Below, one piece after another: positions 5,571-57,285 of a stretch of 64,000 bases of DNA. The translations under genes were made by a program, and so were the position numbers. Each line of letters opens with the position of its first letter. Position 1 is the stretch's first letter. Location: the NCBI GenBank assembly GCA_002269645.1, contig NIVC01000069.1, positions 62,001 to 126,000 of the forward strand. Direction: 5' to 3'. The stretch comes from Macrostomum lignano. Lineage: Eukaryota. The notes under the pieces are model-generated. The model ran no database searches. It was not told where the DNA came from and saw nothing but the letters and a program-made list of their open reading frames with translations.

Positions 5571-5763
5571 GGCAACTGGTGCTGCTGTTTGCCAAGTAGA
5601 AATAGTAACAATCCCAAATTGAGCTACTGTTAGTAGCCAGTACAGTGTAGTGGCGAATTTATTTATACCAATTATTGACAGTGACAGTGGTAGACTCAGC
5701 GAAATCATGAAGTATTTTGGGGAAGAAGCAAACTGGTAGAGTTAGTAGATTATTAAATATTAA

Positions 5764-9553: not shown

Positions 9554-12500
9554 ATGGAACTCGAAGAAGCTGACTCGGCAGCGTTGGACAATGACTCAAC
9601 TCTGGAGCTGCAGCAGCTGCAGTCGCTTGGATCGGAAATAATGCACAAGTATGCCAACTCTGATGGCTCTAAAATTGACTTCAATATTGGCAAGTTTCCA
9701 ATTCAAAAGATCGAAAGTGAGCAGCACAAAATCATGCACGAACGAGCTGCAGGCGTCGGGCCTCTGGAGGCGCCGGAGGCTGCTCCAGCTGTTGATGCAC
9801 ATTCGATGAAAAATTCAGCAATGGAAGATGCAGTGGCAGCCGAGATTGCTGCCGCCAAATTGACTGCATCTGTTGGTGCGCCGGAGCCTGTGGCAGCCAC
9901 TTCCGCCCCCGTGGCAGGGTGGGCCGCGTACGATCCTGTGGGTCGACAAATCAGGAAAATTCCATTCCAACGTGTGAAGATTAGCGGTGACGTTGAGTGC
10001 CACATGCAGGTTGGTTTAGCGCTGGACTTGCGACTTTGCGTATTGAAAATTGCTAACTTCATTATTGTGGGGTCACATTTTCTGTAGCTTGTTGGTGCAC
10101 GTGTCTTCGGCGTGTTTAGTGTTCTTCATTTTGCGTTTAGTTTGTGTGTAACAATTTTTGGCTTAGTTTGTGTGTCACATATTGTCTAGATTGTGTCACA
10201 TATTGTCTAGATTGTGTCACATATTGTCTAGATTGTGTCACATATTGTCTAGATTGTGTCACATATTGTCTAGATTGTATCACATATTGTCTAGATTGTT
10301 TCACGTATTGTCTAGATTGTTTCACACATTGTCTAGATTGTGTCACATATTGGCTAGTTTGTGATAGTGTCACATATTGGCTAGCTTGTGTGGGGCACAT
10401 ATTGGCTAGTTTGTGATAGTGTCACATATTGGCTGGCTTGTGTGTGTCACATATTGGCTAATTTGTAATAGTGTCACATATTGGCTAGCTTGTGTGCGTC
10501 ACAGGCAACTATATTCGGCTGTTGCTAAATAATAAAAATTTTATATTTTAATTATTTGACAGCAGAATTGTCAAACAGTAGCAAGCAGAACTTTTACAAG
10601 AAGCTTTTAGCTATAAGGCGTAAATGCTTAGAACAAATTTGAAGATAAAAGAATATTTTAGCACCACCTGCTCAAAATGACATGACATTGTAGATTCTTA
10701 ACCAAAGGCACTCAGAGTTTGTGCAGCACGCTTCAACTAGAATCAACTTAGATTAGATTACTGCAAACACTTCTGCCCTGGCCCTGCTACGGTTGGGTCG
10801 TTTTCTTAGTAGAAGTAATCTAAAAACTTCTGCAGAGCTATACTGTTGACGCTTTAGAAACTGTTTATTTTACTACAAGTTAATTCATTAATTCTAAGCG
10901 TAGCCACGCCTGGCACTTGAAACAGTAAAGCGCTGTAAAAATACGATTACCCACTTTAAAAACACGATTAACCCACTTTAATAACACGATTACCCACTTT
11001 AAAAACACGATTAACCCACTTTAATAACACGATTACCCACTTTAAAAACACGATTACCCACTTTAAAAACACGATTACCCACTTTAATAACACGATTACC
11101 CACTTTAAAAACACGATTAACCCACTTTAATAACACGATTACCCACTTTAAAAACACGATTAACCCACTTTAATAACACGATTACCCACTTTAAAAACAC
11201 GATTAACCCACTTTACAAACGGTACGGTTGCCTGACTTCAAAGTACGGTTGCCTGACTTTAAATTACGGTTGCCTGACTTCAAATTACGGTTGCCTGACT
11301 TCAAATTACGGTTGCCTGACTTCAAATTACGGTTGCCTGACTTCAAATTACGGTTGCCTGACTTCAAATTACGGTTGCCTGACTTCAAATTACGGTTGCC
11401 TGACTTCAAATTACGGTTGCCTGACTTCAAATTACGGTTGCCTGACTTCAAATTACGGTTGCCTGACTTCAAATTACGGTTGCCTGACTTCAAAGTACGG
11501 TTGCCTGACTTCAAATTACGGTTGCCTGACTTCAAATTACGGTTGCCTGACTTCAAAGAACGGTTGCCTGACTTCAAAGAACGGTTGCCTGACTTCAAAG
11601 AACGGTTGCCTGACTTCAAAGAACGGTTGCCTGACTTCAAATTACGGTTGCCTGACTTCAAAGAACGGTTGCCTGACTTCAAAGAACGGTTGCCTGACTT
11701 CAAAGAACGGTTGCCTGACTTCAAAGTATGGTTTCCTTCTTGAATACGTAGGAGCCAAAATTGCGACGCGTTTCTGCACACACAGATGAATTCTCTTACA
11801 TAATCCCCTGCGCCCTTCCAACAACACCAGGGCGTGTTCTCCGACGAAGACGTCGGGTCAGCTTGCGAATGCCTGATGGTGGCTATGCGGCTCCGACGGC
11901 GCTACATGCTCAGCGCCAATCAGGGTTTTTGTTCCACCGCCGCGCGCTACATGGACCGGGCGACCGCGGCTGCCGCCTCCGCTGCCCACGGCGACGGGGC
12001 CGACTACTGGGAGAAGCTGCAGCAGCACCAGCAGCACAGCGCGGACAATCACGACAGCCATCCATACGATCATCCGCCGGAGACTGACCCGCTGAGCACA
12101 GCGAATCTGCCGCCAACCCTGCCGATCAAATTCGCCATGGTAGATGGCGTTGCCACATTTCAAGTCGCCGACGGTCAGTCGCCGCCAGCGGAGCTGACCG
12201 CTGCTCTTGAGGCGGCGTCGGCGGCGTCAGTGAGTCGCGACACGTTTCTGCGCGATCACAACACCATGGTGGCGCTCATTTCGAATGGACCGTTGAAGAG
12301 TTTCACATTTCGCCGGCTGACCTACTTGCAGTCGAAGTATCAGCTGCACAGCCTGCTGAACGAGTTCAGAGAGAGCGCCGAGCAGAAGTCTGTGCCACAC
12401 AGGGACTTCTACAACATTCGCAAGGTTGACAATCACATTCATGGATCGTCCGCGATGAACCAGAAGCACCTGCTAAGGTTTATCAAGAGGAGTTTGAAGA

Positions 12501-15500
12501 GCCATTCCGATAGGAAGGTGAGAAGACTTCAAAGTTCATTTGAACTTCTGTCGCAATTTCAGAAACTAATGGCTTAGTATTGTGAGCTTTTGCAAACTAA
12601 AATTTGGAATTAGAACATAAGGCTAACTTGTGAGATGTCTCTAATCCACAGTTCATATTGGATTCCGATCTAACTAAGCAAAATAACGTTTAGAACGTTC
12701 GCCTAAAATGTATCCTATAGGCCCCACTTGCTGGCGGGAAAAAAACGGGTACAACTTGATTTTAGGCATAATAAGAATTGTTAAATAGATACATTTCTAC
12801 CGAAACTAGAATGCTTGGCATGGAACTTTCACAGGACAGGGCGTGAATGATGCTTGCATTATTGATCTTGGACTTGAGTTGACTTGACTGCCGAACGCAT
12901 GCTTTGCTTACCTAGCGTTGTCCCAATCTGATGCTAAAGATCCTTCTCTGTGTCCCACCTATCCCAACGCAGGTGTACGTGGACAGGTCCGGCAGGCAGA
13001 TGTCCTTAGCGGAGATATTCGAGGAAATGAAGATAACGGCCTACGACCTCAACATCGACATGCTGGACGTTCACGCGGATCGCAACACCTTTCAACGATT
13101 TGACAAATTCAACTCCAAGTACAACCCGTTGGGTCAGAATCACCTGCGCGAAGTGTTTCTAAAGACTGACAATTATATTCAGGGCGAATTCTTTGCCGAC
13201 ATCATCAAGGAGGTCATGAACGAGATCAACGAGTCCAAGTATCAGCAGGCGGAGCTGAGGCTGTCCATCTACGGGCGCAGCCGCAGCGAGTGGGACAACC
13301 TTGCCAAGTGAGGTTTCTACAGTGACCTTGACCCTGATTAGCTCTTATATTGACCTTGCTCACCATTTTGGACTACTAGTGAACCTTGATCAATGTTATA
13401 GTGATTTTGACCCTGGCTACAACGATCTTGACCCTGCTTCTAGGGACCTTGACCCTAGATATCGAGCTAGTCCGGTGACCTTGACCCTAGAAATCGAGCT
13501 AGTCCGGTGACCTTGACCCTAGATATCGAGCTAGTCCGGTGACCTTGACCCTATATATCGAGCTAGTCCGGTGACCTTGACCCTATGTATCGAGCTAGTC
13601 CGGTGACCTTGAATCTAAATATCGAGCTAGTCCGGTGACCTTGACCCTAGATATCGAGCTAGTCCGGTGACCTAGACCCTAGATATCGAGCTAGTCCGGT
13701 GACCTTGACCCTAGAGCCCCGAGTTTAGTGACCTTTAGTCCAGATCCTAACTCCATTTTTTAATTATAAGTTTAAGTTCTAAAACCGACTTGTTCTGAAT
13801 TGCACTACCAGGTGGGCGGTTAAGCACAAGGTTTACTCCGAAAACGTTCGCTGGCTGATTCAAATTCCGCGTCTATTCGACGTGTACAACAGCAAGAGGC
13901 AGCTAGCAAATTTCGAAGAGTTTCTAGCCAACCTATTCCTGCCGATGATGGAAGCCACTGCCGATCCTGAAGGTCATCCTGAGCTGTTCGCCTTCTTGAA
14001 GTACGTGGTTGCGCTGGACTCTGTGGATGACGAGTCCAAGCCGGAGACTCTGGCGTTCGATGCCGCCTCGCCGATGCCGGGTGAGCCATCGGTCGATGCT
14101 TTGAATATGCTTGAATAACAGGCTACTGGTTAGAAGGCAGACAGGAGCTAGACAAGAAAAGTTCAAAATAGTCGTAGAAACACTCGGTCACTCACCGAGA
14201 AAGACGTTGTTGAGAGATGCTAAGACAGAACTTAATTCTAGACAGGTGCTTACTGCTTAGGCCAACCTAACACAAGGACGTGCGCTGAGACACACCAATG
14301 CAGATGCTGGGACAAACACACACCAACACAGATGCTGGGACAAACACACACCAACACAGATGCTGGGACAAACACACACCAACACAGATGCTGAGACAAA
14401 CACACACCAACACAGATGCTGAGACAAACACACACCAGCACAGATGCTGGGACAAACACACACCAGCACAGATGCTGAGACAAACACACACCAGCACAGA
14501 TGCTGGGACAAACACACACCAACACAGATGCTGGGACAAACACACACCAACACAGATGCTGGGACAAACACACACCAACACAGATGCTGGGACAAACACA
14601 CACCAACACAGATGCTGGGACAAACACACACCAACACAGATGCTGGGACAAACACACATCAACACAGATGCTAAGCCACGCACACTGACCATCATTAGCG
14701 TCCCCACCATTCCTCGCAGGTGACTGGACCGATGCAACGAACCCGCCCTACATGTACTACCTGTACTACATGTACGCCAACCTGGCCACGTTGAATCACC
14801 TGCGCAAGGCTCGCGGCCTTCAACCAATTACGCTGCGACCGCACTGTGGCGAGGCCGGACCCGTGCACCACCTGGTGACGGCTTTCCTGCTGGCGGACAA
14901 TATTAGCCACGGCCTACTGCTCAGGAAGGTGGGAAAGAATGGGCGTGCATGTACTACTGAGCTATAAATTTTTAAGTTGCATGCATAGCTGAAAGCTCAT
15001 AAACTTGGTTTAAAACTTACTTGTACGCTCGTAGCGAAGGCTATGAATTTTTAACTTCAATCAGTCGTCGGACGGCTCTCGTTTTTCTGTTTGAATATAA
15101 ATTGAGTATTCAATACTATTGGTACCTGCATATAATAAGCTACTCGACGTATGGCTAACAACAGGGGGCCGTATCCTAGTGGTCTTGCGCGGCTGCCAGC
15201 GGCCCAGGCTCGATTCCAAGTGCAGTTGCATTAATTTGGGTTTAAATTAGAATCTCGGCTTGGCTCTGCTCGTGCAATTAACGGTCTTGAGGGCCAACCC
15301 CCAAGGCGCAGTGAAGTGTACATGCCTAACGATAAAATAAAGTCAGGGCCGCTGTACACTCCTGTGTGAGTGTGTGCCTGTATGACTGCGTACGTATCCG
15401 CGCGCTTGTGTGCCTGCTCAGGGGAGTCGGCGGAATGGGCGCAGTAATATGTCTAGGATGCACACAGCCCCCTGCCTCCAACAACATTTTACCTGTAATT

Positions 15501-16000
15501 TCCAGGCACCGGCCCTGCAGTACCTGTACTACCTGTGCCAGATTCCCATGGCCATGTCGCCATTGTCGAACAACAGCCTGTTCCTGTCGTACAACCGGAG
15601 CCCTCTGCCGGAATTCCTAGCCAAAGGCCTGCGAGTAACTCTGAGCACAGACGATCCATTGATGTTTCATTTTACTCGCGAGCCACTAATGGAAGAGTAC
15701 TCAATCGCTGCTCAGGTTTGGAAGCTCACTAATACAGACATGTGCGAGCTGGCTAGGAATTCTGTGCTCATGTCCGGCTTCTCGCACGAGGTGAAGCAGC
15801 ACTGGCTGGGGCCGGCCTATCAACGCGAAGGACCGTTGGGCAACGATATCAAACGAACGAACGTGCCGAACGTGAGGCTGGCTTACAGATACGAGAATCT
15901 GATTGGCGAGCTAAGCCTTGTTGCCGGGGCTTATGCTCACGTGAGGCAGCAGTTGCTCCACCGATCTAGATCTCAGAGCACTGCTCAGCAGCATCAGTAG
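9554..16000 (+). CDS. AMPD2: AMP deaminase (AMPD2-like), 6 exons: 9554-10009, 11831-12517, 12973-13307, 13812-14080, 14720-14928, 15506-16000
   Basis: [23 protein letters not shown] (Zn ligands), [79 protein letters not shown]. All junctions are GT-AG with consistent phases. Confidence 0.97.
10165..10500. repeat. 21-bp minisatellite (GTGTCACATATTGTCTAGATT)n in AMPD intron 1
   Basis: Direct reading; degenerates toward its 3' end. Confidence 0.93.
10935..11215. repeat. 21/22-bp minisatellite (ACACGATTACCCACTTTAAAA)n in AMPD intron 1
   Basis: Direct reading. Confidence 0.93.
11222..11730. repeat. 21-bp minisatellite (CGGTTGCCTGACTTCAAATTA)n in AMPD intron 1, abutting the previous array
   Basis: Direct reading; the TTA and GAA unit variants are clustered. 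Confidence 0.96.
13405..13735. repeat. 32-bp minisatellite (GTGACCTTGACCCTAGATATCGAGCTAGTCCG)n in AMPD intron 3
   Basis: Period of 32 checked (13501 to 13533); no spacers. Confidence 0.93.
14290..14672. repeat. 28-bp minisatellite (CACAGATGCTGGGACAAACACACACCAA)n in AMPD intron 4
   Basis: Direct reading. Confidence 0.95.
15164..15225 (+). mobile_element. Degenerate tRNA-like (Pol III A/B box) head, possibly a SINE relic, in AMPD intron 5
   Basis: GGGGCCGTATCCTAGTGG (A-box-like) followed by GGCTCGATTCC (B-box-like); no complete cloverleaf. Confidence 0.4.
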
Positions 16001-18620: not shown

Positions 18621-19754
18621 CACTCAGCAACATTTAAAACGCAACACTCTAACTAGAAGAAAAATCAACTCACTCAGAAGAGTCAAAGCGCATAGTCTAT
18701 GGTTCAAATCGAGCTTCAGAAACGCGTGTAGCCTCCTCTCGCAAGTAACAGGGCGTTGACTCGACGTGGCATTCCCAGAACAAGGCGTCGAAAAAAGTCC
18801 TGGGGAATTTCCTGCCACGCGTTAGCAACAGCATTTCGCAGTTCAGCGACTGTCTGCGGCGGATTCTGCCGTTGAACACTCCGCTTGATAAAGTCCCAGA
18901 CATGTTCAATTGGGTTCATATCAGGGGATCTTGAAGGCCACCGAAGAGTACGCAGGTGCAGCTGGTCCTTGAGTTAGCTGACAGCTGCTGCCCGGTGCGC
19001 CGGTGCATTATCGTCCTGCAGTATGCAGTTTGCGACGCCACCAAAGTGGTTGTTAACAAAAGGGAGCAGATGCGTCTGCAGCAAACGAGCGTACTCATCG
19101 CCGTTCACGTTTGCGTCTAAGAAAACCAGCTGGGTCCTGCCTCGCATTGAAATCCCTGCCCACACGTGTACGGAGGGTCCCTGCCCATCGCAGCTTTGCA
19201 CGTGCTGCTGCAGAAGCTCTTGCCGTGGCTCACGCCAGACGCGAATTCGACCATCACTGCGAAAAAGACGAAACCGACTCTCGTCTGTAAAGATAACGCG
19301 CTGCCACTGTCCTTGCCGCCAGTGCGCCCGCTGCATGGCCCACAGTTCCCTGTTAGCGACATGTGCAGGACTCAGGCGCGGCCTCCTCCGCATTTTTCTT
19401 GACCGCAATCCTGCAGCGTGAAGCCCTGTTACTTGCGAGAGGAAGCTACACGCGTTTCTGAAGCTCGATTTGAACCATAGACTATGCGCTTTGACTCTTC
19501 TGGGTGAGTTGATTTTTCTTCTAGTTAGAGTGTTGTAGAGGAAGCTACACGCGTTTCTGAAGCTCGATTTGAACCATAGACTATGCGCTTTGACTCTTCT
19601 GGGTGAGTTGATTTTTCTTCTAGTTAGAGTGTTGTAGAGGAAGCTACACGCGTTTCTGAAGCTCGATTTGAACCATAGACTATGCGCTTTGACTCTTCTG
19701 AGTGAGTTGATTTTTCTTCTAGTTAGAGTGTTGCGTTTTAAATGTTGCTGAGTG
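18621..19754 (-). mobile_element. Tc1 (DD34E) derivative B: catalytic domain with one in-frame stop, N-terminus deleted, 99-bp TIR segment triplicated
   Basis: TA TSDs at both ends; same 135-bp TIR as element A; FTDES...QDDNAPAH...WPSRSPDMNPIEH with exactly 34 residues between the second D and E; in-frame TAA at 18974-76; repeat units start at 19442, 19541 and 19640. Confidence 0.93.
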
Positions 19755-19992
19755 TATGTGTACTTACACACGAGCGTATGTGGACAATTGAGCCCAGTAG
19801 CTTGCAGTGCAATCCTCAGTGGGAGATTCAAGCTTACCCTGAAGCTTACTGCTGTTTATTGTCTATGACCCAAAGGGGGTCTGTGGAGCAACCAGATTGA
19901 GAGAATTTGGGTGGCCATTCTACGCAGTTGTGCCAGCCTTGGACCATAGACAATCACATAACTCATCTGAAAAAATAGGTATGACAGGCAAA

Positions 19993-20163: not shown

Positions 20164-20924
20164 TGAATAGGGTCGCTTTCTGGCCAAAGACGAGCACACA
20201 GGGGAGGGAGGGACAGAGAGCTGTAAAATCTCAGTCCGATTCTCGTATTGAATGTCCAAAGTTATAGTCTATGGCCAAGTCTCCCTCAGTAGACTTTGCT
20301 AAACTGCTTAAGTCCATGACTAGGGTGAGATCTGTGGCCTGGCTTGAATGTCTTTGGCGTCCCGTTTTGATAGTCCGAATTCCCATTCAGATCGTCAAAA
20401 GCAATACATTTTGAAAACCACTCCGAAAAGCTATTTTATCAGTAAAATTGTGACTTTTTACATTTCAATTTAATAATTTTCAGGACTATCTGGAAGATAC
20501 TAAAGGCGACTGAAACCCTGCAATCCCATTATTTGACTTCATCATATTTTCCAGCACAGATGCCATTATATGCCAAATTTGTACATGTGATGAGGACGCA
20601 CCTTTTTTCAATCTTAGAACCGCACATTTTGCCTCGATGCGCTTTTCCCCTACTGTCAGTAGGCTAACTTAGGAATTGCTCTCCATTCTCTCATCTAGGC
20701 TAAGTTCTATACTAATTTATGCCATTACTATTAGTTATGTTAGAAACTCAATGTACTTCTCTTAGGATTCTAATTTTGGATTGTTTACGCACCTTTGAAG
20801 ATCAGACTGTCTGGGTTTGAGATGGATTGACCTCCAACAGTCTAGACAGGCGACACTAAGTCTGGGAGGAACGTTTTCAACCTCGTTCTGACCCCCAGAT
20901 TTGTGGCTTTTTTACTGTTCTCAG

Positions 20925-21307
20925 TGATTTATGGCCGTCTAGCTGTCACTTTTGGCTCCAGCCTGTCTGGGTCAAAGAGGTCTTTCCAGCTCTCTCCCCA
21001 CTCGCTCTGTTGCTTTCTCCTTTGATTTATGGGCGTTTTGCTGTCACTTTTGGCGCCAGGATGTCTAGACAAGTGACTTTTATTATGTTTTGCTTATGAT
21101 TTATGACCGCACCTGTCAACTTCCCTGGGGTCTGAAGGCCACCTGGTGGGGTGGGTTTTGGGGTCTTGAGCTCAGCCAATCAGAGTCGACCTGACTGCCC
21201 CCGGCTCGACCAATCAGAAAATTCGGCGCCTATTTTAACAAAAGCTCTCAGCCAATCGGAAAATTCGGCGTGCATTATAACAAATTGGCCGCGTGAGAGC
21301 TATAAAA
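20925..21307 (+). promoter_or_regulatory. LTR enhancer/promoter: three TGATTTATGR-(6-8)-CTGTCA composite sites, three CCAAT boxes and a TATA box
   Basis: Composite sites at 20925-20948, 21023-21046 and 21097-21118; CCAAT at 21176, 21210 and 21252; TATAAAA at 21301-21307. Confidence 0.65.
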
Positions 21308-21544
21308 GGCGGCAACTCGACCCGCGCTCGAGAAAACGCCAAACTGGAGAGCGGACCCTGGTCCTCCTCTTCTGGTCCTGCCGACCTGATCCCCCTTTCC
21401 CCGGCAGTTTCGGCTTCAACAGCTAAGTTCCCCCTGAGAAGCATCATCAACATCTCCCAGCAGTGATCTAAGAGCAGCAACGACTATCGGCAAGTGAAGA
21501 GCAGCGGCGGCAATCGTCAGTCAAGATCAGCAGCAGCATCCCAC

Positions 21545-24500
21545 TGTTCTGTTGTTGAATTAACGAACGCAGAAACAAGATAGATAATTATCCGGGCGCT
21601 CAGTGGCACCAAAAGAAGGGCTTGGCCAATAGGAGGGCGGCTCGTATATTTATGCACGCGGGGAAGGAAAGTTCTAGAAAGACCGGGGAAGGAAACTTCT
21701 GGAACTATGCGTAAACAAGTCCGCGGTGGAAGTTTCTAGAAACGCTGTCCCCGAACTACCCCTACGCCTCGCATGCCTTTGCAATACACAACATTCTTCC
21801 CCTCCTTCAAGGAGTCCAACAGTCCCCAAGCTTCACTTTAATCAGTCCCAGCGGCAGTTCATGAAGCGTATCGGCGGGTGCCTGGCTCGCTCAGATCGGC
21901 GGGGCGCTGCTGTTCTTGCCGGAGGCTCCGCCGCCGGTGCCGCCGGTGCCGCCGTGCCGGCTCCGGTCGTTGGCGCCGAGTCCACCAGTGGATCGAACCG
22001 CTCTCTCGGCTGCGCCGGGTGCGGTGTTCGGATCAGCCGCTGCTGGTTCCATCTGGTGCCGTCGCTGAGCTCGACCGCGTGGTGTCCCGCCTGACGGAGC
22101 ACTTGTAGTGGCCGTGAGAGGCGGGTACCCAGCTTGCCCTTCTTGGTGGGCCGTCGGATTCTCACCCAATCGCCGGGGTGGAACGTCTCGGGGCGGGCCC
22201 TTCGTCTGGCATCGGTGTAGGCCTTGATCCGCTGCTGCCGCGCCTCGATTTGCTGCCGCAGTGCCTGAGGCGTCGCCTCGGTCGTTGTCATTCCCCCTCC
22301 GGGAGACAGCATGGTGATCGCGGTGCGCCACTTCCGACCCAGCATGAGCTCGGCCGGTGACTTGCCCGTCAGGCTGTGCTTGGAGCTCCGGTAGGCGGAC
22401 AAGAAGTTGGTCACGGCGTCTTGAAACGGCCTGTTCTCCACCATGGCCGCTCTGATGCTGGCGAGTAGCGACCGATTGAGACGCTCCGTCTGGCCGTTGG
22501 TTTGCGGATGGTAGAGGCTGGTCTTGACGTGCCGGATGCCCTGCTCGGCCAAGAAGTCCGAGAACTCGCTGCCAAACTGCGGGCCGTTGTCCGTCAGCAC
22601 CTTCTCGCACAGCCCCCACCTTGCGAACAGGCTGCGCATCGCACGGCAGATGGTCTCCGTGGTGATGCTGGCCGTCGGGATGACCTCCGGCCACTTGCTG
22701 TGCAGGTCGGTCACGACGATGAGGTACCTGCTAGAGGCCGGCGCCGCCTGCAGTTCTCCGACGATGTCCACGGCGATCTCTGCCCATGGTGAATCTGGCC
22801 AGCGTATGGTCTTGAGCGGGGCCGGACTGACCTTAAAGTTCTTCTCGGCTGTCTCGCACGCTACGCAGTGTCGCACGAAGGTCTCGACCGCCTTGTCCAT
22901 GGCGGGCCACCAGACTGAGTCGCGGAGCGCCTGCTTGGTGCGCACGATGCCCTGGTGCCCTTCGTGAGCCTGCTCGAGAAGCTGGCCGCGGAGAGACTCC
23001 GGGATGACCGCTCTCTCCTGGAAGGCAAGGCATTCGCCGTTGTTCCAGACGCTTAGCTGTTCGCGCACCTTCCAGAGCGCCCGCAGCTCGACGTCGTCGA
23101 TGTCAGCTGGCCACCGGCCGCTAATGACGCTCCTGATGGCTGTCCTCAGTGTCTCGTCAGCTGCGGTCCCTGCGGTAAGTGCTTCCAGTGTGACCGCCTT
23201 GACTCTCGGGCCTGGAGTGTCGGGCAGGTGGATCAGGTTTAGCTCCGATCCGCTGCTCCACCGGGAAAGCAGATCGGCAACGTAGTTGCTGTTTCCTGGC
23301 AGGTAGTGCACGTGGAAGTCGTACTGCAGCAGCCGGTCGCACCACCTGTGGATCCGCAGTGGCCGGTGTCCCGTGCCGGTCGGTCCCAGAAGCAGCTGCT
23401 GCAGCGCCTGATGATCTGTGCGCAGCTCGAAGTGGCGACCGTAGAGGTAGAAATGCCACTTCTCCATCGCCCAGAGGCTAGCCAGTGCCTCGCGCTCGTT
23501 CGCGGCGTAGCGCTGTTCCGTCGTCGTCAGCGCTCGGGCGGCGAAGGCGACCGGTCGCTCGACGCCGTCCTGGATCTGCGACAGCTGGGCTCCGATGGCC
23601 TTGGCGCTGGCATCCGTGGTGACGATAGTGTCGGCCTTCGGGTCGAAGTGGGCGAGCGTCGGTGCCTTGCTGATGGCGTCCTTCACTGCTTCGAACGCCC
23701 GTTGGCACTCCGGCGTCCAGTCGAAGTTGGAGTCGGCCTTCAGGAGCCTTCGAAGCGGCTCTGTGATGTCGGCGTAGTGCGGCACGAAGCGCATCAGGAA
23801 GTTAGCGGCGCCTAGGAATGACTTCAACGCCTTCTGATCTCCGGGCTGCCGGATGTCCCTGATGGCCGCTGTGGCTGACTCCGTTGGCCGGATGCCGGCC
23901 TCCGAGATCACGAATCCGAAGAATTCGACCTCTTTCTGCTTGAAGGCGCACTTCTGCTTGTTCACCGTCATGCCCTTGTCCTCGAGGCGCTGGAGCAACT
24001 TCTCCAGTCGTCGATCGTGCTCCTCCTCGCTGCGCCCGTACACGATGAAGTCATCCAGGATGTGCTCCACTCCGTCGAGGTCGGCGGCCTGATCGTCGAG
24101 CATGCGCTGGAAAGCAGCTGGTGCCGATGCCAGGCCGAAGGGAACTCGACGATAGCGGAAGAGCCCCTTGTGCGTGATGAAGGCTGTCAGGTTGCGGCTC
24201 GATTCATGCAGCTGCATCTGCATGTAGCCCGACTTCAGATCAATCTTGCTGAACACTCGGCCACGGCCTTTCTTGATCTTCGAGGCAATCTCGTCCAGCT
24301 GTGGCATCGGGTGCTTGTCGACGATCAGTGCCTTGTTCGGCTCGCGAACGTCGACGCAGATTCGGATGCTGCCATCCTTCTTCGCCGTCACCACTAGATT
24401 GGAGACCCACTCGCTAGCGTTGACTCGCTCGATGATGCCGTTCTTCTCTATCTTATCGAGTTCGGCACCGACCTGCTCCTGTCGCATGAGGGGCAGGCGA

Positions 24501-26074
24501 CAGAGTGGCTGCTGGTCGGGTCGCACTGCTGGGTCGACCTTGGGCTGGTGTACAGCGCCGGCGCAGCATCCTATCGCACCGCTGAAGGTCGTTGGGTACC
24601 GCGCCTGCAAGTCCGCCGTCAAGTCGCTGACCTCCGCGATTCCGGGCGGCTGCCCGCTAAGGTCGACTCGGAAGCCCAGCTTCTCCATCAGGTCTCTACC
24701 GACGATGTTGTCGCCGCCTGGCGCAACGAAGAACCGGTGCTGCATCGCCTTGTCGCCGTAGCGCACCTCCAGCTCGGTGACACCACTTAGCTGGATCGGC
24801 AGTCCACCGTAGGCACGCAGCTTCGTCGTAGTGGGAGAGGTGACTGCACCTGAGATCCGATCGGCGGTCTGTCGGGACAGCAGCGACACCCTTGCGCCGC
24901 AGTCCACCATCAGGCTGACAGCGGTCCTGTCCGGTCCGAGTTCCAGCGTCGCCCGGACCTCCCTGTCGCCACCTGACACTGTGTAGACTGTGATCACCTC
25001 GTCCGCGGCATTGACAGCAGCCTGCTGGCTGCGACAGCAACTCCGGAAGTGGTTCTTCTTGCCACAGGCGTCGCATGTCTTGCCCTTGGCCGGACAGGGG
25101 GTCGTCGGTCCGTGGTCTCGCCCACAGCGTGTGCAGGCGCCGCCGGGTTTGGCCGTCCTGCCAGCTGGTGCTGGGCGGTGCCTCCCCTTTGCAGCGACCT
25201 TCTGGCCCCTCGGCTGTCGGATCGATTGGACGGCTGCCGTGCTCGAGGTTGATGGCGCCATCGCCTTGGCTTCTTTGGAGGCTTCCTCGATGGAGACCGC
25301 GATGCTGAGCGCTTTCGCCAGGTTGAGGTCCTCCACCTTCTCCGTCAGCAGCCTCTCTCGGATTCTGGGGTTACTGGTCTTCTCAGCCAGCTGGTCTCTG
25401 ATGAGATCGTCCTGTATCGCGCCGTAGTTGCACAGCTCCGTCAGCTCCCTCAGGGCTGCCACGAAGGTCTTGACGTCCTCGCCGGGTAGCTGCTGGCGCT
25501 GGCGGAAGCGATATCTGGCCACCATCACGTTGGGCTTCTCGCCGAAGATCTTCTCGAGCTCCGCCTTAGTTGCTGCGAACGTGTCGTTCTCCTTGATTGC
25601 TTGGCGTGCTCGAGCAACCCGCTGACCTTCGAATCCAAGCAGATGGAGCAGAAGGCTCCTCTTCAGCGGTTTCGCCTCTTCCTTCCCTTCGGGCTCTTTG
25701 AATTGGGCCGCCTCGTAATAAAATTCAAAGGCCTCAATCCATCGGCTCCATGGTACTGTCGGTGATCCGCAGTTCGCCAGGAAGGGCGTGGGTGCAGGGA
25801 TGCTAGCCGCCATCCTCGTCGCCAATGTTCTGTTGTTGAATTAACGAACGCAGAAACAAGATAGATAATTATCCGGGCGCTCAGTGGCACCAAAAGAAGG
25901 GCTTGGCCAATAGGAGGGCGGCTCGTATATTTATGCACGCGGGGAAGGAAAGTTCTAGAAAGACCGGGGAAGGAAACTTCTGGAACTATGCGTAAACAAG
26001 TCCGCGGTGGAAGTTTCTAGAAACGCTGTCCCCGAACTACCCCTACGCCTCGCATGCCTTTGCAATACACAACA
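21545..26074 (-). mobile_element. Full-length Ty3/Gypsy LTR retrotransposon, Mag-like clade (4530 bp)
   Basis: Two 249-bp LTRs (21545-21793, 25826-26074), identical by eye, TG...CA; 5-bp TSD CCCAC; PBS TGGCGACGAGGATGG (25824-25810) complementary to the tRNA-Ser(GCU) 3' end; PPT GAAGGAGGGGAAGAA next to the 3' LTR. Confidence 0.98.
21842..25813 (-). CDS. Uninterrupted Gag-Pol polyprotein (Gag with tandem Zn knuckles, PR, RT, RNase H, IN)
   Basis: ATG lies inside the PBS (MAASIP); CTRCGRDH...CDACGKKNHFRSCC; PR LMVDCGA; RT KIDLKSGY, PFGLASAP, ILDD; RH TDAS, EREAL, TDH; IN HEGH...CVAC, VD...TDNG...ERLN; no env or chromodomain seen. Confidence 0.97.
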   Translation of the reverse strand: MAASIPAPTPFLANCGSPTVPWSRWIEAFEFYYEAAQFKEPEGKEEAKPLKRSLLLHLLGFEGQRVARARQAIKENDTFAATKAELEKIFGEKPNVMVARYRFRQRQQLPGEDVKTFVAALRELTELCNYGAIQDDLIRDQLAEKTSNPRIRERLLTEKVEDLNLAKALSIAVSIEEASKEAKAMAPSTSSTAAVQSIRQPRGQKVAAKGRHRPAPAGRTAKPGGACTRCGRDHGPTTPCPAKGKTCDACGKKNHFRSCCRSQQAAVNAADEVITVYTVSGGDREVRATLELGPDRTAVSLMVDCGARVSLLSRQTADRISGAVTSPTTTKLRAYGGLPIQLSGVTELEVRYGDKAMQHRFFVAPGGDNIVGRDLMEKLGFRVDLSGQPPGIAEVSDLTADLQARYPTTFSGAIGCCAGAVHQPKVDPAVRPDQQPLCRLPLMRQEQVGAELDKIEKNGIIERVNASEWVSNLVVTAKKDGSIRICVDVREPNKALIVDKHPMPQLDEIASKIKKGRGRVFSKIDLKSGYMQMQLHESSRNLTAFITHKGLFRYRRVPFGLASAPAAFQRMLDDQAADLDGVEHILDDFIVYGRSEEEHDRRLEKLLQRLEDKGMTVNKQKCAFKQKEVEFFGFVISEAGIRPTESATAAIRDIRQPGDQKALKSFLGAANFLMRFVPHYADITEPLRRLLKADSNFDWTPECQRAFEAVKDAISKAPTLAHFDPKADTIVTTDASAKAIGAQLSQIQDGVERPVAFAARALTTTEQRYAANEREALASLWAMEKWHFYLYGRHFELRTDHQALQQLLLGPTGTGHRPLRIHRWCDRLLQYDFHVHYLPGNSNYVADLLSRWSSGSELNLIHLPDTPGPRVKAVTLEALTAGTAADETLRTAIRSVISGRWPADIDDVELRALWKVREQLSVWNNGECLAFQERAVIPESLRGQLLEQAHEGHQGIVRTKQALRDSVWWPAMDKAVETFVRHCVACETAEKNFKVSPAPLKTIRWPDSPWAEIAVDIVGELQAAPASSRYLIVVTDLHSKWPEVIPTASITTETICRAMRSLFARWGLCEKVLTDNGPQFGSEFSDFLAEQGIRHVKTSLYHPQTNGQTERLNRSLLASIRAAMVENRPFQDAVTNFLSAYRSSKHSLTGKSPAELMLGRKWRTAITMLSPGGGMTTTEATPQALRQQIEARQQRIKAYTDARRRARPETFHPGDWVRIRRPTKKGKLGTRLSRPLQVLRQAGHHAVELSDGTRWNQQRLIRTPHPAQPRERFDPLVDSAPTTGAGTAAPAAPAAEPPARTAAPRRSERARHPPIRFMNCRWD

Positions 26075-27484
26075 CCCACCTAAGCGCTTCGTCTCTGTGG
26101 ATTCCTTGGCTACCGGCAGATAGGTCCTCTGATTGGTTTGGTGAGAGGCTCTCTTGACCTGCTTAACTGGGTGCACCCTTTGTCTGACCCCTTCCTAGGT
26201 AGTCTGGTAGGATTTGCACTTTTGCTTACTTGCTTTTGTGTGCCAATCTCGAGGCAGAAGTGTTAGTTAATATTAAAAGTAGCCATTTGCTCTAACTTAA
26301 TCTAAAGTGTTAAGGATTGCGGATTAAGTGAGAAAGTTAAATTTGGAAGTTAAAGACTTAGCGTTTTCTTTCTTTTTCGCAATGCCAGCTGAGATGAGCA
26401 GCTAAATCTAGAGGCAGAGGTCACGGTGGACCGGAAGCGGCACAGTTCCCAGTCAATCAGTCAATCTCAGAAATCATTATGTTAAGCATGCAAATTAAGA
26501 GCCAGACTGGCGCTTTGGCGCGGTCACAGGCAGTTAAGTGGCTAAAGTAAGTTAAATATTAGTCTAAAGATCTCCGAAAGTGACAATGCATCTACATCAT
26601 CGCTATCTGTCGACGTGTTAACACATTTAGTGCCAAAAGCGTGCAGTTACATGTACTTATACATGTACTTCTGGGAATTTGGTAATGAAATAGTACATTT
26701 AGTAGTGTATAGAGGCTCGCCAGCGCAAGAACTCCCTGCAAAAGTCCTCTCTGTCCCTGCATGGCCAATGCGATCTTAGTCCCAGCAGCGTCCCTTCTAT
26801 TCGGCTATGACTTCGAGATGGACAGCTAAAAGACACTAGATGGCAGGTAAGTGCAGTGCCCCTCTAGTCGGAAGTCCGATTTCGATAGCTCCGGTTTGGT
26901 GAGCCCGGGGCGCACGGACTGGTGGCAGCGGGTTAGTTAATCTGCGGATTAGCTAATCTCTACCTTTCAAATTCTCCCTGCTTGTCTCTCGCTGTCTCCT
27001 CCTAGCTATAGGACCTTGCTGCTCGCCCACAATCTAGCTACCATGGGGCTGACCATCTGACAGGAGTGAGAGGCCAGAGTTCTAAGTGATTCATTTCTGA
27101 ATTCTGAGGCCCGAAGCTACAGGCTTAAAAGGCCGAACCCATCACATGCGGTAAATGTACGTTGGGTAGAAACACTGGGATATTGGCAAAACTAATCCCA
27201 ATTTTTCTGGGTGTCTATTCTAGGTAGGTCTAAACAATCTGATGGAGAGCTCAGGAGCAGGAGTTGCTGCACCATATTATTCTGCAAGTTACAGCGAATG
27301 AATGAGTACTAAATTCTAGACTTACATGCAGTTTATTTCTAGCACTCTTATCTGAATATCAACAACACAAAACACAATCACAAAATGGCATAGCTTTACT
27401 AGCCTACTGTAAGTAGTACTCTTTGTGTTTCAATTGGGAAGCAATACTTAATGAAACACGAAAACTTGCTTCTAACCCACAAAT

Positions 27485-31850: not shown

Positions 31851-33450
31851 GTCCAGCAGTTGATTTTTGCCCACTGTCGAGGCTTGATCAGCGAAACTAG
31901 AGAAATCCGCATCAGGGTGTCCATAGTCACCTGGTGCCACAGCTGTTGAGGGTCCAGAAGCTCCATCTGGGTGAAGGCTAGTGACCAACGAAGTCAGAAC
32001 TGATGCAGACACATGTGGTCGACGTGCTGATGAAATTTGGAGACTTGGCAAGGCTGCACTGAGGCGCAGTGCTGATTGGCGCACAGGGGTGTACTGAATA
32101 CACTAGCGCTTATGGGAAAAATCCGACCTTCTGGCAGAATCGTCGAATATCTCGACGGTCCGAAGGGCTGGCGACTTGATTCTTGTTTGAGAAGGTGCGC
32201 AACAAAAAGTTAGCTCGTGTTCTTGAATTTCGTGTGCCTGCGTTGCTCCGTTCCGGCGCAGCAAAAAAAATTGTCAGGGGGGGGAAATTTCCCCCCCCCC
32301 TTGGTAGTTCTACTGTTAATAAATACATAACAGCAAGGAGTAAATGATCAAAAAGGAAAACATTCATTAAAACTAAAGTACCAGCTATACGAAAATAGTT
32401 CATAATAAATGTCACAGCTTGTGCAGTTCATCAGTTTGTAGTCGAAATTTGACAATGTGAAAATCAATTTGTCACCCAAAGTGAAACATGCAGTTCTCAA
32501 AGCCGCAGTTCCCAAAGATGCTCGACACTTTAGCCTGATGATTTGGCACTGCAAAAGGAGTTGGCCTATTTTGAATGTTTTCTATAAAAGAGAAATAACA
32601 GGTGCTTAAGTATAGTTACCGAACTTACCATTTGAAAGATGCACGTCTTGGTTGGCTTGCGACTGATAAGCTTCGTCTGATGAGCTTCTTTGGTACCGCA
32701 GTATCCAAGCTGGGATTCTTTGGGACTGTCGGCTGCTCGACTAAATCTATTGGCCGCTTTGAGACATCGCTTATAGCCGTCGAAGCGTTGAAGACTGCAT
32801 GGTCGAGTTTTCTTCCTAGGTAGCGCCGCACGGTTCGTTCAGTCGTTGACAGGAAGATTTTTCCAATTAATAAGCGCGGCTGTTTGACGAGATGCACCAG
32901 CCATGGTTGTTTGACAAGACAAATAGCTTTTTCTCTTACTACTCGCTTTTCTGATTTCTTACAAGACGCAAGCGAAATCAGCACTCATCGCAGTGTGTCT
33001 ATGGTCAAACTAAGACACACAACTCAGTGGTCTATGGGTAAAATAACTCTTAAAACAGCCAATTGAAGCACGATAAAAAAGTGTGGAATAATGACAGCGA
33101 CAAAAGTGTGGATATAAGAGTGAAAGTATAAGTACAATGCACTTGTATAGTATTCAACTCAGTTGCATACTATACAATCTACCATTGTAAGGTTTCTGAA
33201 TGTAAAATAAAATATGGTTTACAGCATCCATCAGCGCGTTGAAACTACTGCCGAGGGCCCTTCGAAAATAGCTAGCTAAGTAACAGTCTTCAGGAACCCG
33301 CGACCCAGGGACAACCTTAGTAGAAGGACGCTGCACTCGAATTTCTTAGACGTGACTGGGTGCGGTAAGAAACGTATATTATTTCTTCTCGAAGTGAATC
33401 TTCAGAGAACGATTTTAACATTTCCACGTCAACAAAGTCCTTTAACTAAC

Positions 33451-33964
33451 CTTCTTTCTGCATGATGAAGCGAAACTCGTGCGTGAGTCCGGTCTCAACG
33501 GCGGCCAGAGTGTCCGACAGGGCCAGGGCTGGCTGGCCAAGCCGCGGTCGCTTCCACCCTGTGCTTGGATCCGCGTTGGCAATGTCGAATAACAGAAAGT
33601 TCAACTTGCAGTTGGTATCGCAGTTGAGCAGGGAGTTGAGTTCCGGTGCTGCCGAGCTGTCTGTGAGCTTGCTAATTGACAAAACGTCGTTTGGACAGAA
33701 GTACACATCCGGGAAGCGATAGGCCAGCGACGTGGTCAGGGTGGTAAGCAGCGGCAGGCTGAAGAACCTGTCGAACAGGGTGTACATGTGATAAGCAAAA
33801 CCGCTGTAGGTGCCAATTAGAAAGGCCAACCAAATGACGCGACCGTAGGCGCTGCTCTGCGAACGGAACCGACCAAGGCCGTGCGCCGTAGTGTACTGGC
33901 AGAACTGCTTCAAGGCATGGATCGGTGCAGTTGGCTGATGTGCTTGATGTGCCTTCCCTTTCAT
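33451..33964 (-). CDS. DEG/ENaC (ASIC-like) channel, first coding exon only
   Basis: FCQYTTAHG (pre-TM1 HG motif), TM1 VIWLAFLIG, FPDVYFCPN; donor G|GTTAGT at 33450. The following exon is interrupted by a stop, and no Cys-rich or TM2 (GGxxGL) region was found. Confidence 0.75.
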
Positions 33965-34274
33965 TTTTGAGGCCTGAAATTTGGCATGGTAGGGTCGATG
34001 GATGTCTGTGTTTTTATATAGTAAAACAAATTCATAATTCAGGCTCTCAGAAATCGCAAACCAAAAGCGCGGATTGGTTGCGGATTAATCTTTGACTCTA
34101 TCTCTCTCTCCCTTTCTCATAAACGTATTCGAGTATCTTCCCGTCGGTTTTCCTCATCGATAATTTAAGCTCAAATTTCCAGCTGGCTAGCCAACGCATC
34201 GATGTTTCTACTACTACTACAGTGTTAAGAGAAAGAATCGGCGAATGGACGGCTATAGCATTATGGATTATACT

Positions 34275-39906: not shown

Positions 39907-40662
39907 TCAGGTCAGGCCGAACTTCACCCAGTCAGCGCTCGTCTCGATCGCCTCCTCCACCTGAGCGTCAGTGAAGTGCAGCAGGCGGCATTTCTTTTGC
40001 TTCTTATTGAACAGCACGTGCTGGCTGTCCTTCGATCTCATCGCCATGGCAACGCACTCGATAGCGCTGTCGATGTTGGTCAGGTCAGTGAAGCAGTACT
40101 CAGAGCTGGGATTGTAGCTGGACCGCTTGAACGGAGTTCGCCTCCACTGGCCGTTGAGTTGGGCCGCAATCGGAGCAGCTGCATCGAACTCGCACGCGAA
40201 TCCGAATTTGTCAGAGCAGGAGAGGTCGACGACATTAGTGGAGCTTTCAAAGGTGCCTACGCAGTCCTGTTTTTCATCTTTATTGTTTGGGTCACCGGCG
40301 AACCAAAGAGAGTCATCGAGAGGCAGCTGGCCTCTGCCGAACACCATCTGCCAGCCCTCCCTGCTGGTGTTTCTCTCATCCGCCATGTCGGTCACTCCGA
40401 GCCAGTATTTATTTCCAGTTTGAAAACTCGGCATGCTGGGCAGCAGCTGCAGCGAGCCGTACGAGTTGATGAGCTCGCCACCGATCGATGAGCACTGCCG
40501 ATTGGCCTCGCACCAGGTGAAGCTCTGGGATGGGTTCACGAATATGCACCTGCCGGCCTCGATGTAGAAGGGAGCGGGGCACTGAGCCAGCACCGGCAGC
40601 AGTGAGCAGAGCAAACTCAAAATAATTTGAATAAATATTCGCACTGCGACTGACCGTTGCAT
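39907..40662 (-). CDS. Secreted C-type lectin (signal peptide, CTLD, degenerate PAN/apple-like C-terminus), intronless, copy 1
   Basis: Hydrophobic leader; CP...GRC; TWCEANRQC...GGEL; YWLG; WFAGDPNN...DC; DLSC...FACE; C-terminal YCF...EC...CRLL. Confidence 0.88.
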   Translation of the reverse strand: MQRSVAVRIFIQIILSLLCSLLPVLAQCPAPFYIEAGRCIFVNPSQSFTWCEANRQCSSIGGELINSYGSLQLLPSMPSFQTGNKYWLGVTDMADERNTSREGWQMVFGRGQLPLDDSLWFAGDPNNKDEKQDCVGTFESSTNVVDLSCSDKFGFACEFDAAAPIAAQLNGQWRRTPFKRSSYNPSSEYCFTDLTNIDSAIECVAMAMRSKDSQHVLFNKKQKKCRLLHFTDAQVEEAIETSADWVKFGLT

Positions 40663-49019: not shown

Positions 49020-51005
49020 TGATGGGTTTCGACCTTCGGGCCCCTTGTTAGGAAGCCTTCGGGCCTCAGGCTCAGAAACAAATCACTTAGAGTCCTGGCC
49101 CCCCACTCCTGTCAGATGGTCAGCCCCATGGTAGCTTGATCGTGTGGCGAGCAGTCTAGGTCCTATAGCTAAGAGAGGGACAGCGAGAGACAAGCAGGGA
49201 GAATTTTGAAGGTAGAAATTAGCTCATCCGCAGACTAAGCTAACTCGCTGCCACCAGCCCGTGCGTCCTGGCTCACCACACCGGGACTCTCGAAATCGGG
49301 CTTCCGACTAGAAGGGGCTTTGCACTTACCTGCCAACTAGTGTCTTTTTGCTGTCAATCTCGAAGTCATAGCCGATGATAAGGGACACTGCTGGGACTAG
49401 ATCGCATTGGCCATGCAGGTACAGAGGGGACTTCTTGCAGTGGCGAGTCTATGGGGTAGCTACATGTACTATTACATTGCTAAATACGAAGATATGTACT
49501 TTTGGCCTTCAACGCGCCAACTAGCCTCTCATAGCGCTGATGATAGACTAACTCGAACTTCAGAGACCGCATAATTCATTACCCGAGCCGCTTGGCTAAC
49601 CTAGAGTGCACAAAGTACATCTCTGGCGCCGATTCTGCACTTCTGGCAGTTTTGCTCACTGATTTGATTGATTGATCGACTGAGAACCGCCTTGCCATTG
49701 GTCCACCGTGACCGGCGCCTACTAGCTTAGCTACTCATCTGAGCCATCGGCGAACAAAGAAATAAAACCTATAAAAATAACTGTCAGATTTAACCTTCTC
49801 CTTAGTTCACTTCACACTTCAGATTGAATTAGAGTTTTAGACAGCTAGCAGTATTATTGAATGATTTCTGCCTCAGCAACAGCACTACTGAACAAAATGA
49901 GCAAAAGTGTGCGCCTAATTCAGCTACTGAAACAGGGGACAGATAGGGAATCACCCAATCAAGCAAGTCTAGGTAGCCTCTCACCCAACCAATCAGAAAC
50001 TCAACAGCCGGAGACCAGGTAATCCACAGTGACCGAATCGGCTTGATGCTCTGCAGCTGTAGACTCGGGATGATGCTGTCACAATCTTCGCAGATAGCTA
50101 GCAGGTGGTGATCTTAACTTTGATGTTCGCTGCTGATGACCGGGGGACTCGTCCTTGATGATGATGGGGGGGAAGTCGCAATCCGGGGATCAAGAAACGA
50201 CGGTCGCGCTCCGGGATGTCCCAAGCTAGGCTAAGGTCCCAGGAGGTGAGCGCAAGTTGAGGTCCGAGCGGGCCAAAAACTCCGGTTTAAATAGCCGCCA
50301 ACTGGACCGCAGTTTGTTATAATGGAACACGTCGATTCTGATTGGCCGAGCCGTTTTGTTAAAATGAGCGCCGAATTTTCTGATTGGCTAAGCTTGTTGC
50401 TACCCAGAATCACGTGACCGAGAGATCCTATCAGTTCCCACAGGGTCGTAAAAATATGACAGGTGCGGCCATAAATCACTCAAAATCGCAACAAAATGAT
50501 TTATGACTTTTCGCGTAGGATTGACAGAAATTAATGAAAAAATATACATTAGAAAGCTCTTATTAAATAGAAAGTGAAGATAATGAAGAGAAATTGCTAA
50601 TCGCTAATCCCAAGGTACTTTTAGGGGTAAAACGCATAGCTGTCAAAGCTGTCACACGCTTGAGTGAATCCGAACAATAGGCTCTGACCTCATAAATCTT
50701 GATGACCTGTCAAAATGATGAGAAAAAAGCTACCGCCCGCATCCTCTCAGACCATCTGGCGCCCGTCTCAACACTGAGTGAGACGCAGGTGGCTGTCAGA
50801 CCAGCTTCGAAAGCGATGATTTATGACCCAAAAAGCTATGCCTATGTTATTATGACTACTAGTATGGCCAGACATTATATCTAGTATAGATTCTATGACA
50901 ATTTGCAGAAAAAGGATAAAAATGCCCCTTGCCCACTGTTAGTAGGCAAGTAAGTTTAGAGCCCATGTGCTAGCGCGGGATTTGGGAAAAAGTGCGTCCT
51001 CATCA
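49020..51005 (-). mobile_element. ~2.0-kb solo LTR (copy 2, 1986 bp) of the same family as 20588-27144
   Basis: TGATG...CATCA termini; 4-bp TSD GAAG (49016-19 and 51006-09); collinear blocks with copy 1 including CCAAT boxes, the TGATTTATGGCCGCACCTGTCA site (50478-50457) and a GGCAG|GTAAGTG donor. Confidence 0.88.
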
Positions 51006-57175: not shown

Positions 57176-57285
57176 GGGGTAGAATTTGTCGCTGATAGGC
57201 CAAGCATCACATGGGAAAGCATCGGCTGAGGCCATGACTAAACTCAAATTATTTATATGCTAATTCTTCAGCCCCAGCCTGAGCC

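Follow-up and report, generated by a model that had tools for sequence, protein, structure and literature searches.

Two solo LTRs at the locus

The window, a 64-kb stretch of the Macrostomum lignano genome, contains two long terminal repeats (LTRs) of a single Ty3/Gypsy family. A sequence-only reading had described two solo LTRs of about 2.0 kb, and this description holds: both copies have the ends TGATG...CATCA and a 4-bp target duplication, i.e., the TG...CA termini and short duplicated target of a Ty3/Gypsy solo LTR. Copy 1 is split by a nested 4.5-kb Gypsy element, a distantly related, intact, and young one, which encodes a single 1332-aa Gag-PR-RT-RH-IN frame (21842-25840). Once this insertion is taken out, copy 1 measures about 2.02 kb. 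The features of the two copies are as follows.

20588-27144, plus strand: solo LTR copy 1, TGATG...CATCA ends, target duplication CATG
20588..21544, plus strand: 5' part of copy 1 (U3 and core promoter), subfamily A, delimited by the ends and the CATG duplication
20925..20948, plus strand: module 1, TGATTTATGG + 8 nt + CTGTCA; halves intact in 18/20 and 19/20 A copies
21023..21046, plus strand: module 2, a local duplicate of module 1 with an 8-nt spacer; halves intact in 14/20 and 17/20 A copies
21097..21118, plus strand: module 3, promoter-proximal, 6-nt spacer; 21/22 bases common to subfamily B
21176..21307, plus strand: three CCAAT boxes and TATAAAA; the sole U3 block aligned by blastn between the window copies
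21545-26074, minus strand: nested Gypsy element inside copy 1, 5-bp target duplication, identical 249-bp LTRs
26080..27144, plus strand: 3' part of copy 1 (putative R/U5), ending in CATCA; 72% identical to copy 2 over about 1 kb
49020-51005, minus strand: solo LTR copy 2, subfamily B, TGATG...CATCA ends, target duplication GAAG
50457..50478, minus strand: proximal module of copy 2 by pattern match, TGATTTATGG + 6 nt + CTGTCA
50497..50527, plus strand: extra TGATTTATGA of copy 2, antisense to the LTR, with TGACAG 15 nt away
50640..50712, plus strand: three more CTGTCA sites in the copy 2 U3 and a AGATTTATG variant
50793..50826, plus strand: CTGTCA 18 nt upstream of the third TGATTTATGA of copy 2

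Relatives of the copy 1 5' part are 87 to 95% identical to it, in some cases along its entire length of 958 nt. Copy 2 represents the dominant LTR type, subfamily B, and is 94 to 95% identical to the LTRs of the Gag-type and Pol-type elements described below. The 3' halves of the two copies can be aligned, and blastn aligns their U3 regions in the CCAAT block alone.

The surrounding frames we take, by resemblance, to be an isoaspartyl methyltransferase exon (5163-5741, minus strand), AMP deaminase exons (11804-16000, plus), a Tc1 transposase (18974-19855, minus), a DEG/ENaC channel (33446-34084, minus), and a flavin monooxygenase (57283-61426, plus). A further frame (42903-43934, minus) is presumably a tyrosine recombinase, possibly of a DIRS-type element, and two near-identical frames (39907-40701 and 46797-47552, both minus) are presumably C-type-lectin-like; this pair represents a recent local duplication. 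Going by these assumed labels, no obvious patterning gene flanks either LTR.

Composite motifs in the U3 regions and their spread

Three TGATTTATGR-(6-8 nt)-CTGTCA modules, three CCAAT boxes, and a TATA box had been claimed for copy 1, and all of them were recovered: the modules begin at 20925, 21023, and 21097, the first two 98 bp apart, the CCAAT boxes lie at 21176, 21210, and 21252, and TATAAAA lies at 21301. The single module claimed for copy 2 is likewise present (50457-50478, minus strand), but that U3 holds more sites than had been noticed, namely, three TGATTTATG and six CTGTCA/TGACAG sites. Modules 1 and 2 are 86% identical over 44 bp and are not independent because they stem from a local duplication. 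Module 3 retains its 21 bases common to subfamilies A and B amid flanks that cannot be aligned, and its exact sequence occurs 646 times in the genome (control, 0). Most motif sites of copy 2 stand at positions without a counterpart in copy 1, among them two of its three TGATTTATG sites, both antisense; the third TGATTTATGA is matched by a site at a comparable position in a distant LTR lineage, E.

The composite pattern TGATTTATGR-N6-8-CTGTCA has four matches in the window, all within the two LTRs, and none in 100 shuffles; TGATTTATG was observed 3 and 3 times in the two U3 regions (0.003 and 0.016 expected) and CTGTCA/TGACAG 4 and 6 times (0.34 and 0.27 expected), with the shuffle and excess P values being optimistic since the motif was picked after inspection of the sequence. 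The positions of the sites and their turnover are evidence independent of that choice. Four control LTR stretches (the U3 of a sister family, the LTR of the nested element, and two further Gypsy LTR stretches) contain no TGATTTATG. Across the genome searched (764 Mb in 5,269 contigs), we counted 905 composite matches against 0 for a control pattern, 824 exact copies of the 14-base LTR start (control, 2), and 21 exact junctions between LTR and primer site, figures that overstate the number of insertions because the assembly is redundant and many loci have common flanks.

Eighty LTRs were sampled from the 824 starts, taken in contig order and with the two in the window left out. Sixty-five align to copy 2 in U3, and about six are of the copy 1 type. 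Both ends were found for 49 of the LTRs, and 31 of the 80 had no detectable end; a perfect 4-bp duplication flanks 37 of the 49, and a 5-bp duplication flanks none. The family consists mostly of solo LTRs, with the primer site following the LTR end in 1 of these 49. Distant LTR lineages, which were themselves found through the motif, have the composite with other spacers. Just two 9-mers, TGATTTATG and GATTTATGA, are common to six LTR lineages, in a comparison that is not independent insofar as three of the six lineages were found via the motif. Lineage D gave no blastn alignment to A or B, and its membership is uncertain. Lineage E, which also has the upstream antisense site, is present as three assembly copies with one flank and thus as a single insertion; the 27 other loci examined in its search matched just a piece of about 230 nt resembling a LINE end. 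In the three lineage E copies (L264-L266), this piece, which matches the terminus of a LINE-like repeat that is abundant, sits directly behind a TATA-like box.

Tests for selection on the motifs between lineages and after insertion

Among the 65 aligned copies, lineage variants (letters common to at least four copies) occur in 4 of 63 motif columns, compared to 94 of the 487 columns in the flanks (P = 0.0085). For TGATTTATG the figure is 0 of 27 columns against the same background (P = 0.008), and for the Meis half it is 4 of 36, which is not significantly protected (P = 0.27). Mutations private to individual copies were found at 32 of 4,051 motif sites (0.79%) and at 270 of 31,280 non-CpG flank sites (0.86%), without a significant difference (P = 0.72). 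CpG decay was ruled out as a source of motif conservation, as CpG and non-CpG flanks mutate alike. In the older B copies (n = 19), motif bases match at 0.94 versus 0.84 for random placement (P = 0.0017), and the young B copies (n = 46) show no clear motif excess (P = 0.058). The A copies have a motif identity of 0.982 versus 0.944 in the flanks (P = 0.0085), in a test that mixes lineage-level and copy-level change. Module 3 keeps an intact Meis half in just 2 of the 19 older B-type copies; older B copies have CTGTCG in place of the CTGTCA of this module and an added TTTTATGG. The TGATTTATG half is retained, and found repeatedly, in LTR lineages with U3 regions that can no longer be aligned.

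The comparison of motif bases with flanking LTR bases, proposed in the sequence-only reading, has a divided outcome: conservation is seen between lineages for TGATTTATG and not significantly for the Meis half, and it is not detected after insertion. Protection at the level of lineages together with no protection from copy-private mutations indicates that selection acted during element replication and not detectably after insertion. The motifs are real and were selected for the element; their use as host enhancers is unsupported in bulk.

Two incomplete internal types behind one LTR

A search for the full-length parent of the solo LTRs, which had been suggested, yielded two internal types behind the same LTR and no complete form. 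The 21 exact junctions lead into 14 Gag-type and 2 Pol-type interiors, and the remaining 5 break off before any gene. None of the 16 coding interiors combines protease with reverse transcriptase (RT), and none carries the complete autonomous Gypsy set of Gag, protease, RT, RNase H, and integrase.

Gag-type elements consist of a 2.5-kb leader, a Gag frame of about 460 codons, and a protease frame in the -1 phase. In all three copies checked, an in-phase GGAAAAC heptamer is located at the Gag stop. RT and integrase had no match in any of the 14 elements, 10 of which were followed through to the 3' LTR. This is the layout of semiautonomous GAG-Pro elements (Gag and protease, no RT or integrase), with the protease frame partly deleted in 1 of the 14, L062. 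That element runs from LTR through primer site, interior, and purine run to LTR between matching 4-bp flanks, and its primer site is presumably complementary to tRNA-Leu. Gag (dN/dS, 0.008/0.19) and protease (0.05/0.57-0.59) are under purifying selection. Contigs of four putative-RNA runs cover the LTR and the Gag interior; strand, start, and level are not readable from contigs.

Pol-type elements (L206 and L208, with different flanks) carry capsid-like and dUTPase-like parts together with RT, RNase H, and integrase, and Pfam recovered the Ty3/Gypsy order of RT, RNase H, and integrase on L208 and L218. Neither Pfam nor a purpose-built profile nor an alignment with canonical relatives revealed a protease in this type. 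The profile returned nothing at an E value of ≤10 in six frames of all nine Pol-type elements searched (two of the window-LTR family and seven of the sister family). It matches 6/6 Gag-type and 3/3 canonical elements, which are in or near its training set, and detects proteases outside the training set at E values of 1e-7 to 1e-15. A separate contig of 4,590 nt from run X9 spans the protease-less Pol interior with 1 mismatch and 1 gap. Both L206 and L208, as assembled, have a frame change in the capsid stretch, where the X9 contig differs, and this frame change may be an assembly error.

The best candidates searched included no complete autonomous partner for the Gag type, and all RT-bearing elements with the same LTR were without protease. 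The RT search, in which the best 111 of 4,729 candidates were scored on an assembly that is possibly incomplete, so that a complete partner could be missed, returned 2 copies at 99 to 100% identity, 10 sister-family places at 59 to 67%, and then nothing above 48%. The Gag type and Pol type are 98.7% alike in the leader (over 2,571 nt), 95.3% in the 3' region, and 96.0% in the LTR. The 5' and 3' LTRs are 99.5 to 99.7% alike in both types, indicating that both moved recently. Gag-type copies outnumber Pol-type copies by about 7:1 in this family and by about 5:1 in the sister family.

A sister family with the same split

A search with Gag and protease located the sister family at about 50 places with approximately 40% identity, in addition to the 10 places of the RT search. 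Five Gag/protease loci and seven RT loci were examined in full, with one contig-end Pol-type fragment lying outside the profile test. The split is the same: elements with Gag and protease and without RT stand against elements with a 1,553-codon capsid-to-integrase frame and without protease, and the LTR and leader of the two types are 97 to 98% alike. The slippery heptamer, here GGGAAAC, is in phase in one of two copies. The protease (L224:3863-4399) has DGG instead of DTG/DSG, which may point to low activity; its five copies score alike on the profile. The sister-family LTR is 2.2 kb long (L157:2073-4282), and its pyrimidine-rich U3 contains no Pbx-Hox or Meis motif. Because this family has the same split but not the motifs, the motifs are unnecessary for a two-part life. 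The motif-free LTR is also a natural negative control for the U3 motifs.

The N terminus of the sister Pol type, as folded in a model (pLDDT 73), matches the PNMA2 capsid and dUTPases, and the matches listed include no protease. The capsid trees place the four two-part rows in a single clade (100/100), within which the Pol-type capsids of both families are sisters (99/99) on long branches; grouping by family was rejected by the AU test (P = 0.007 and 0.005). This grouping of Pol-type capsids across families implies that the split is older than the two families. The noncoding parts, in contrast to this pattern, are homogenized within each family.

Outside the genome, the Gag of the Gag type found nothing at an E value of ≤0.001, and the hits of the Pol type were generic Gypsy proteins of 31 to 46% identity. 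Most hits of a profile search were canonical Gags, of which the long ones that were checked are protease-bearing or chimeric gene models; this shallow search turned up no relative without protease in any other species. Two UniRef gene models, P0128 and P0130, have Gag, protease, and integrase-like parts and no RT by Pfam; they may be model artifacts or another reduced layout.

Candidate factors for the U3 motifs

The motifs are very probably functional factor sites. Genes of the PBC (PF03792) and Meis/Prep (PF16493) families are present in the genome above the cutoff. The published syntax is a PBX-HOX site, TGATNNATKR, with a MEIS/PREP site, CTGTCA, within 40 bp (PMC4489388, PMC3261376), and TGATTTAT is described as an Exd-Hox dimer site (PMC6547607). 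The LTRs have TGATNNATKR with CTGTCA within this distance, so the pairing of Pbx/Exd-Hox with Meis/Hth claimed in the sequence-only reading fits. The Meis half of the LTR modules lies on the Hox side, that is, on the side opposite to the Exd side reported as favored for Hth in SELEX (bioRxiv 10.1101/706473); Meis sites occur on the Pbx side too in copy 2, and working enhancers are reported to vary in the side and orientation of the Meis site (PMC4489388). Like the enhancers described in these reports (PMC4489388, PMC3261376, PMC6023610, 10.1101/706473), the LTRs combine the two sites within 40 bp, cluster them, and have CCAAT nearby. The reports, however, concern host enhancers with tested activity, and the NF-Y pairing in that literature was demonstrated for DECA sites, which are absent from these LTRs. 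The claim that the family is driven by TALE-Hox input thus stands at the sequence level, with a match to the published syntax and with TGATTTATG protected in lineages, while the fixed composite is looser than claimed. That the sites are specifically Pbx-Hox with Meis/Prep sites seems rather probable. A Gfi1-type site is disfavored, as the base before TGAT varies.

Proposed explanation and alternatives

The two-part organization is the stronger finding, compared with the motif. On balance, we favor the explanation that the window holds solo LTRs of a Gypsy family with two incomplete, likely complementing forms, whose U3 motifs would be Pbx-Hox and Meis/Prep sites serving the family's own transcription. 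The Gag-protease and capsid-Pol forms are likely an old, mutually dependent pair, as their domain content and the capsid trees suggest. Both RNAs would arise from a common promoter within the same cells. The Gag type would yield Gag and, by a -1 shift at the in-phase slippery heptamer, Gag-protease; the capsid domain of the Pol type would deliver the enzymes to the particle, and there the protease of the partner would cleave them. Template switching between copackaged RNAs would keep LTR and leader 95 to 99% alike while the capsids drift to about 25%, and copackaging with such switching appears to be the simplest cause of the homogenized noncoding parts. TALE-Hox input and NF-Y at the CCAAT boxes could confine expression to a particular region of the body or a particular cell type, and a common, restricted promoter might help the two partners meet. 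Recombination between LTRs would have left hundreds of solo LTRs, followed by neutral decay. More tentatively, and with the balance tilting somewhat against so full a version, this could be a stably segmented animal LTR lineage of obligate partners that codiverged through at least one family split, with LTR and leader kept alike by copackaging and a Hox-TALE promoter for meeting.

The motifs could be functional through other factors, with TTTATG, TGACAG, and the CACCTG of module 3 being presumably Cdx/Abd-B-type monomer, TGIF or Prep (here acting alone), and Snail-type sites, respectively. The exchange of CTGTCA for CTGTCG and the gain of TTTTATGG in older B copies, as well as the variable spacing and orientation of the B sites, would suit this account, which is nevertheless unlikely: the whole of TGATTTATG is kept, including the Pbx half TGAT, TGATTTATG and GATTTATGA are the sole six-lineage 9-mers (three lineages being motif-found), and the variable base before TGAT speaks against the Gfi1-type variant. 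Co-option of the solo LTRs by the host, as enhancers for axial patterning or regeneration, we consider improbable. The suggestion that the family disperses axial enhancers stood insofar as the sites are dispersed, with the 905 composite matches against 0 for the control, and the slightly higher motif identity of the A copies, in which lineage and copy change are mixed, also points that way; bulk co-option left no sign in the private mutations of the 65 copies, in a test compatible with a few co-opted copies, nor in a clear excess among young B copies, and the window's neighbors, which we take to resemble metabolic, channel, and lectin genes, count against it. A chance origin of the motifs, with local duplication and transposition multiplying them, would account for the duplicate pair of modules 1 and 2 and for genome counts that reflect copying and redundant assembly, yet it is very improbable: in A and B, TGATTTATG occurs at nonhomologous positions and in either orientation, and it persists where the flanks cannot be aligned.

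One-way parasitism would explain the split differently: the Pol type would be independent, using a protease of the host or of a third element or remaining unprocessed, and the Gag-protease form would be a semiautonomous hitchhiker like Sabrina/WHAM of wheat. The Pol type does have its own capsid domain, many canonical protease-bearing elements reside in the same genome, the sister protease has the atypical DGG motif, and an excess such as that of the Gag type in both families is frequent in parasites. Strong purifying selection, however, acts on the protease of an element without its own Pol, the absence of a protease from the Pol type goes back to an old loss common to both families, and retroelement proteases normally act inside the particle; we regard this account as doubtful. 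Mutual dependence of the two forms remains our preferred reading.

Relation to known systems

A complementary element pair, "ADAM/EVE," is reportedly described in a plant preprint on chickpea. In wheat, RLG_Sabrina_SA and RLG_WHAM encode Gag and protease only, with RLG_Wilma as the RT/integrase partner, in what the report terms a "cooperative complex" (PMC9744471). As in Macrostomum, the wheat Gag-protease elements have the partner's primer site and termini (PMC9744471). Wilma, however, is described there as autonomous with a complete set, whereas the Macrostomum Pol partner is without protease and no complete form was found; the wheat partners have hardly any sequence homology, in contrast to the LTRs and leaders that are 95 to 99% alike here, in an animal host. 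The literature searched, outside which most subscription papers lay, contained neither a two-part LTR pair with a protease-less Pol partner nor a Pbx-Hox-Meis (Exd-Hox-Hth) module mapped in an LTR.

Drosophila 412 is reported to depend on abd-A. The cis-sequences of 412 and of ovarian endogenous retroviruses are described as confining expression to a gonadal cell type (PMC3364263, PMC12992720), which may be compared with the restricted promoter proposed for these LTRs. In M. lignano itself, LTRs with heat shock elements have been reported (PMC12801592), i.e., LTRs of the same species with host factor sites for their own transcription, through a factor that differs from the Hox-TALE reading; the reporter method works in this worm according to that study. 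Its LTR survey takes RT as the starting point and accepts a copy as complete if RT, RNase H, and integrase are present; by these rules, the Gag type or a missing protease would pass unnoticed, and the terms "Hox," "protease," and "non-autonomous" are absent from its main text (PMC12801592).

The autonomous/nonautonomous scheme presupposes one self-sufficient element. A mutually lacking pair that is stable across two diverged families would, if true, be the retroelement counterpart of a segmented virus and a natural test of dividing the Gag:Pol ratio, packaging, and protease action between genomes, a two-part organization that RT-first annotation misses. An LTR under lineage-level selection for near-consensus Pbx-Hox/Meis sites would be a ready TALE-Hox reporter in a transgenic regenerating worm, and the motif LTRs offer a clean case that separates selection for the element from host co-option.

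An additional frame behind the protease

Some Gag-type elements (L203:5922-7037, L205, L212, and L066) have an extra frame of 360 to 450 codons after the protease, which had no Pfam match and no Atlas match above 0.80. The sister family has such a frame as well (L225:6299-7660 and L227), about 24% identical to the version in the window-LTR family (E values of 1e-3 to 1e-5), and the frame is probably ancestral to both families.
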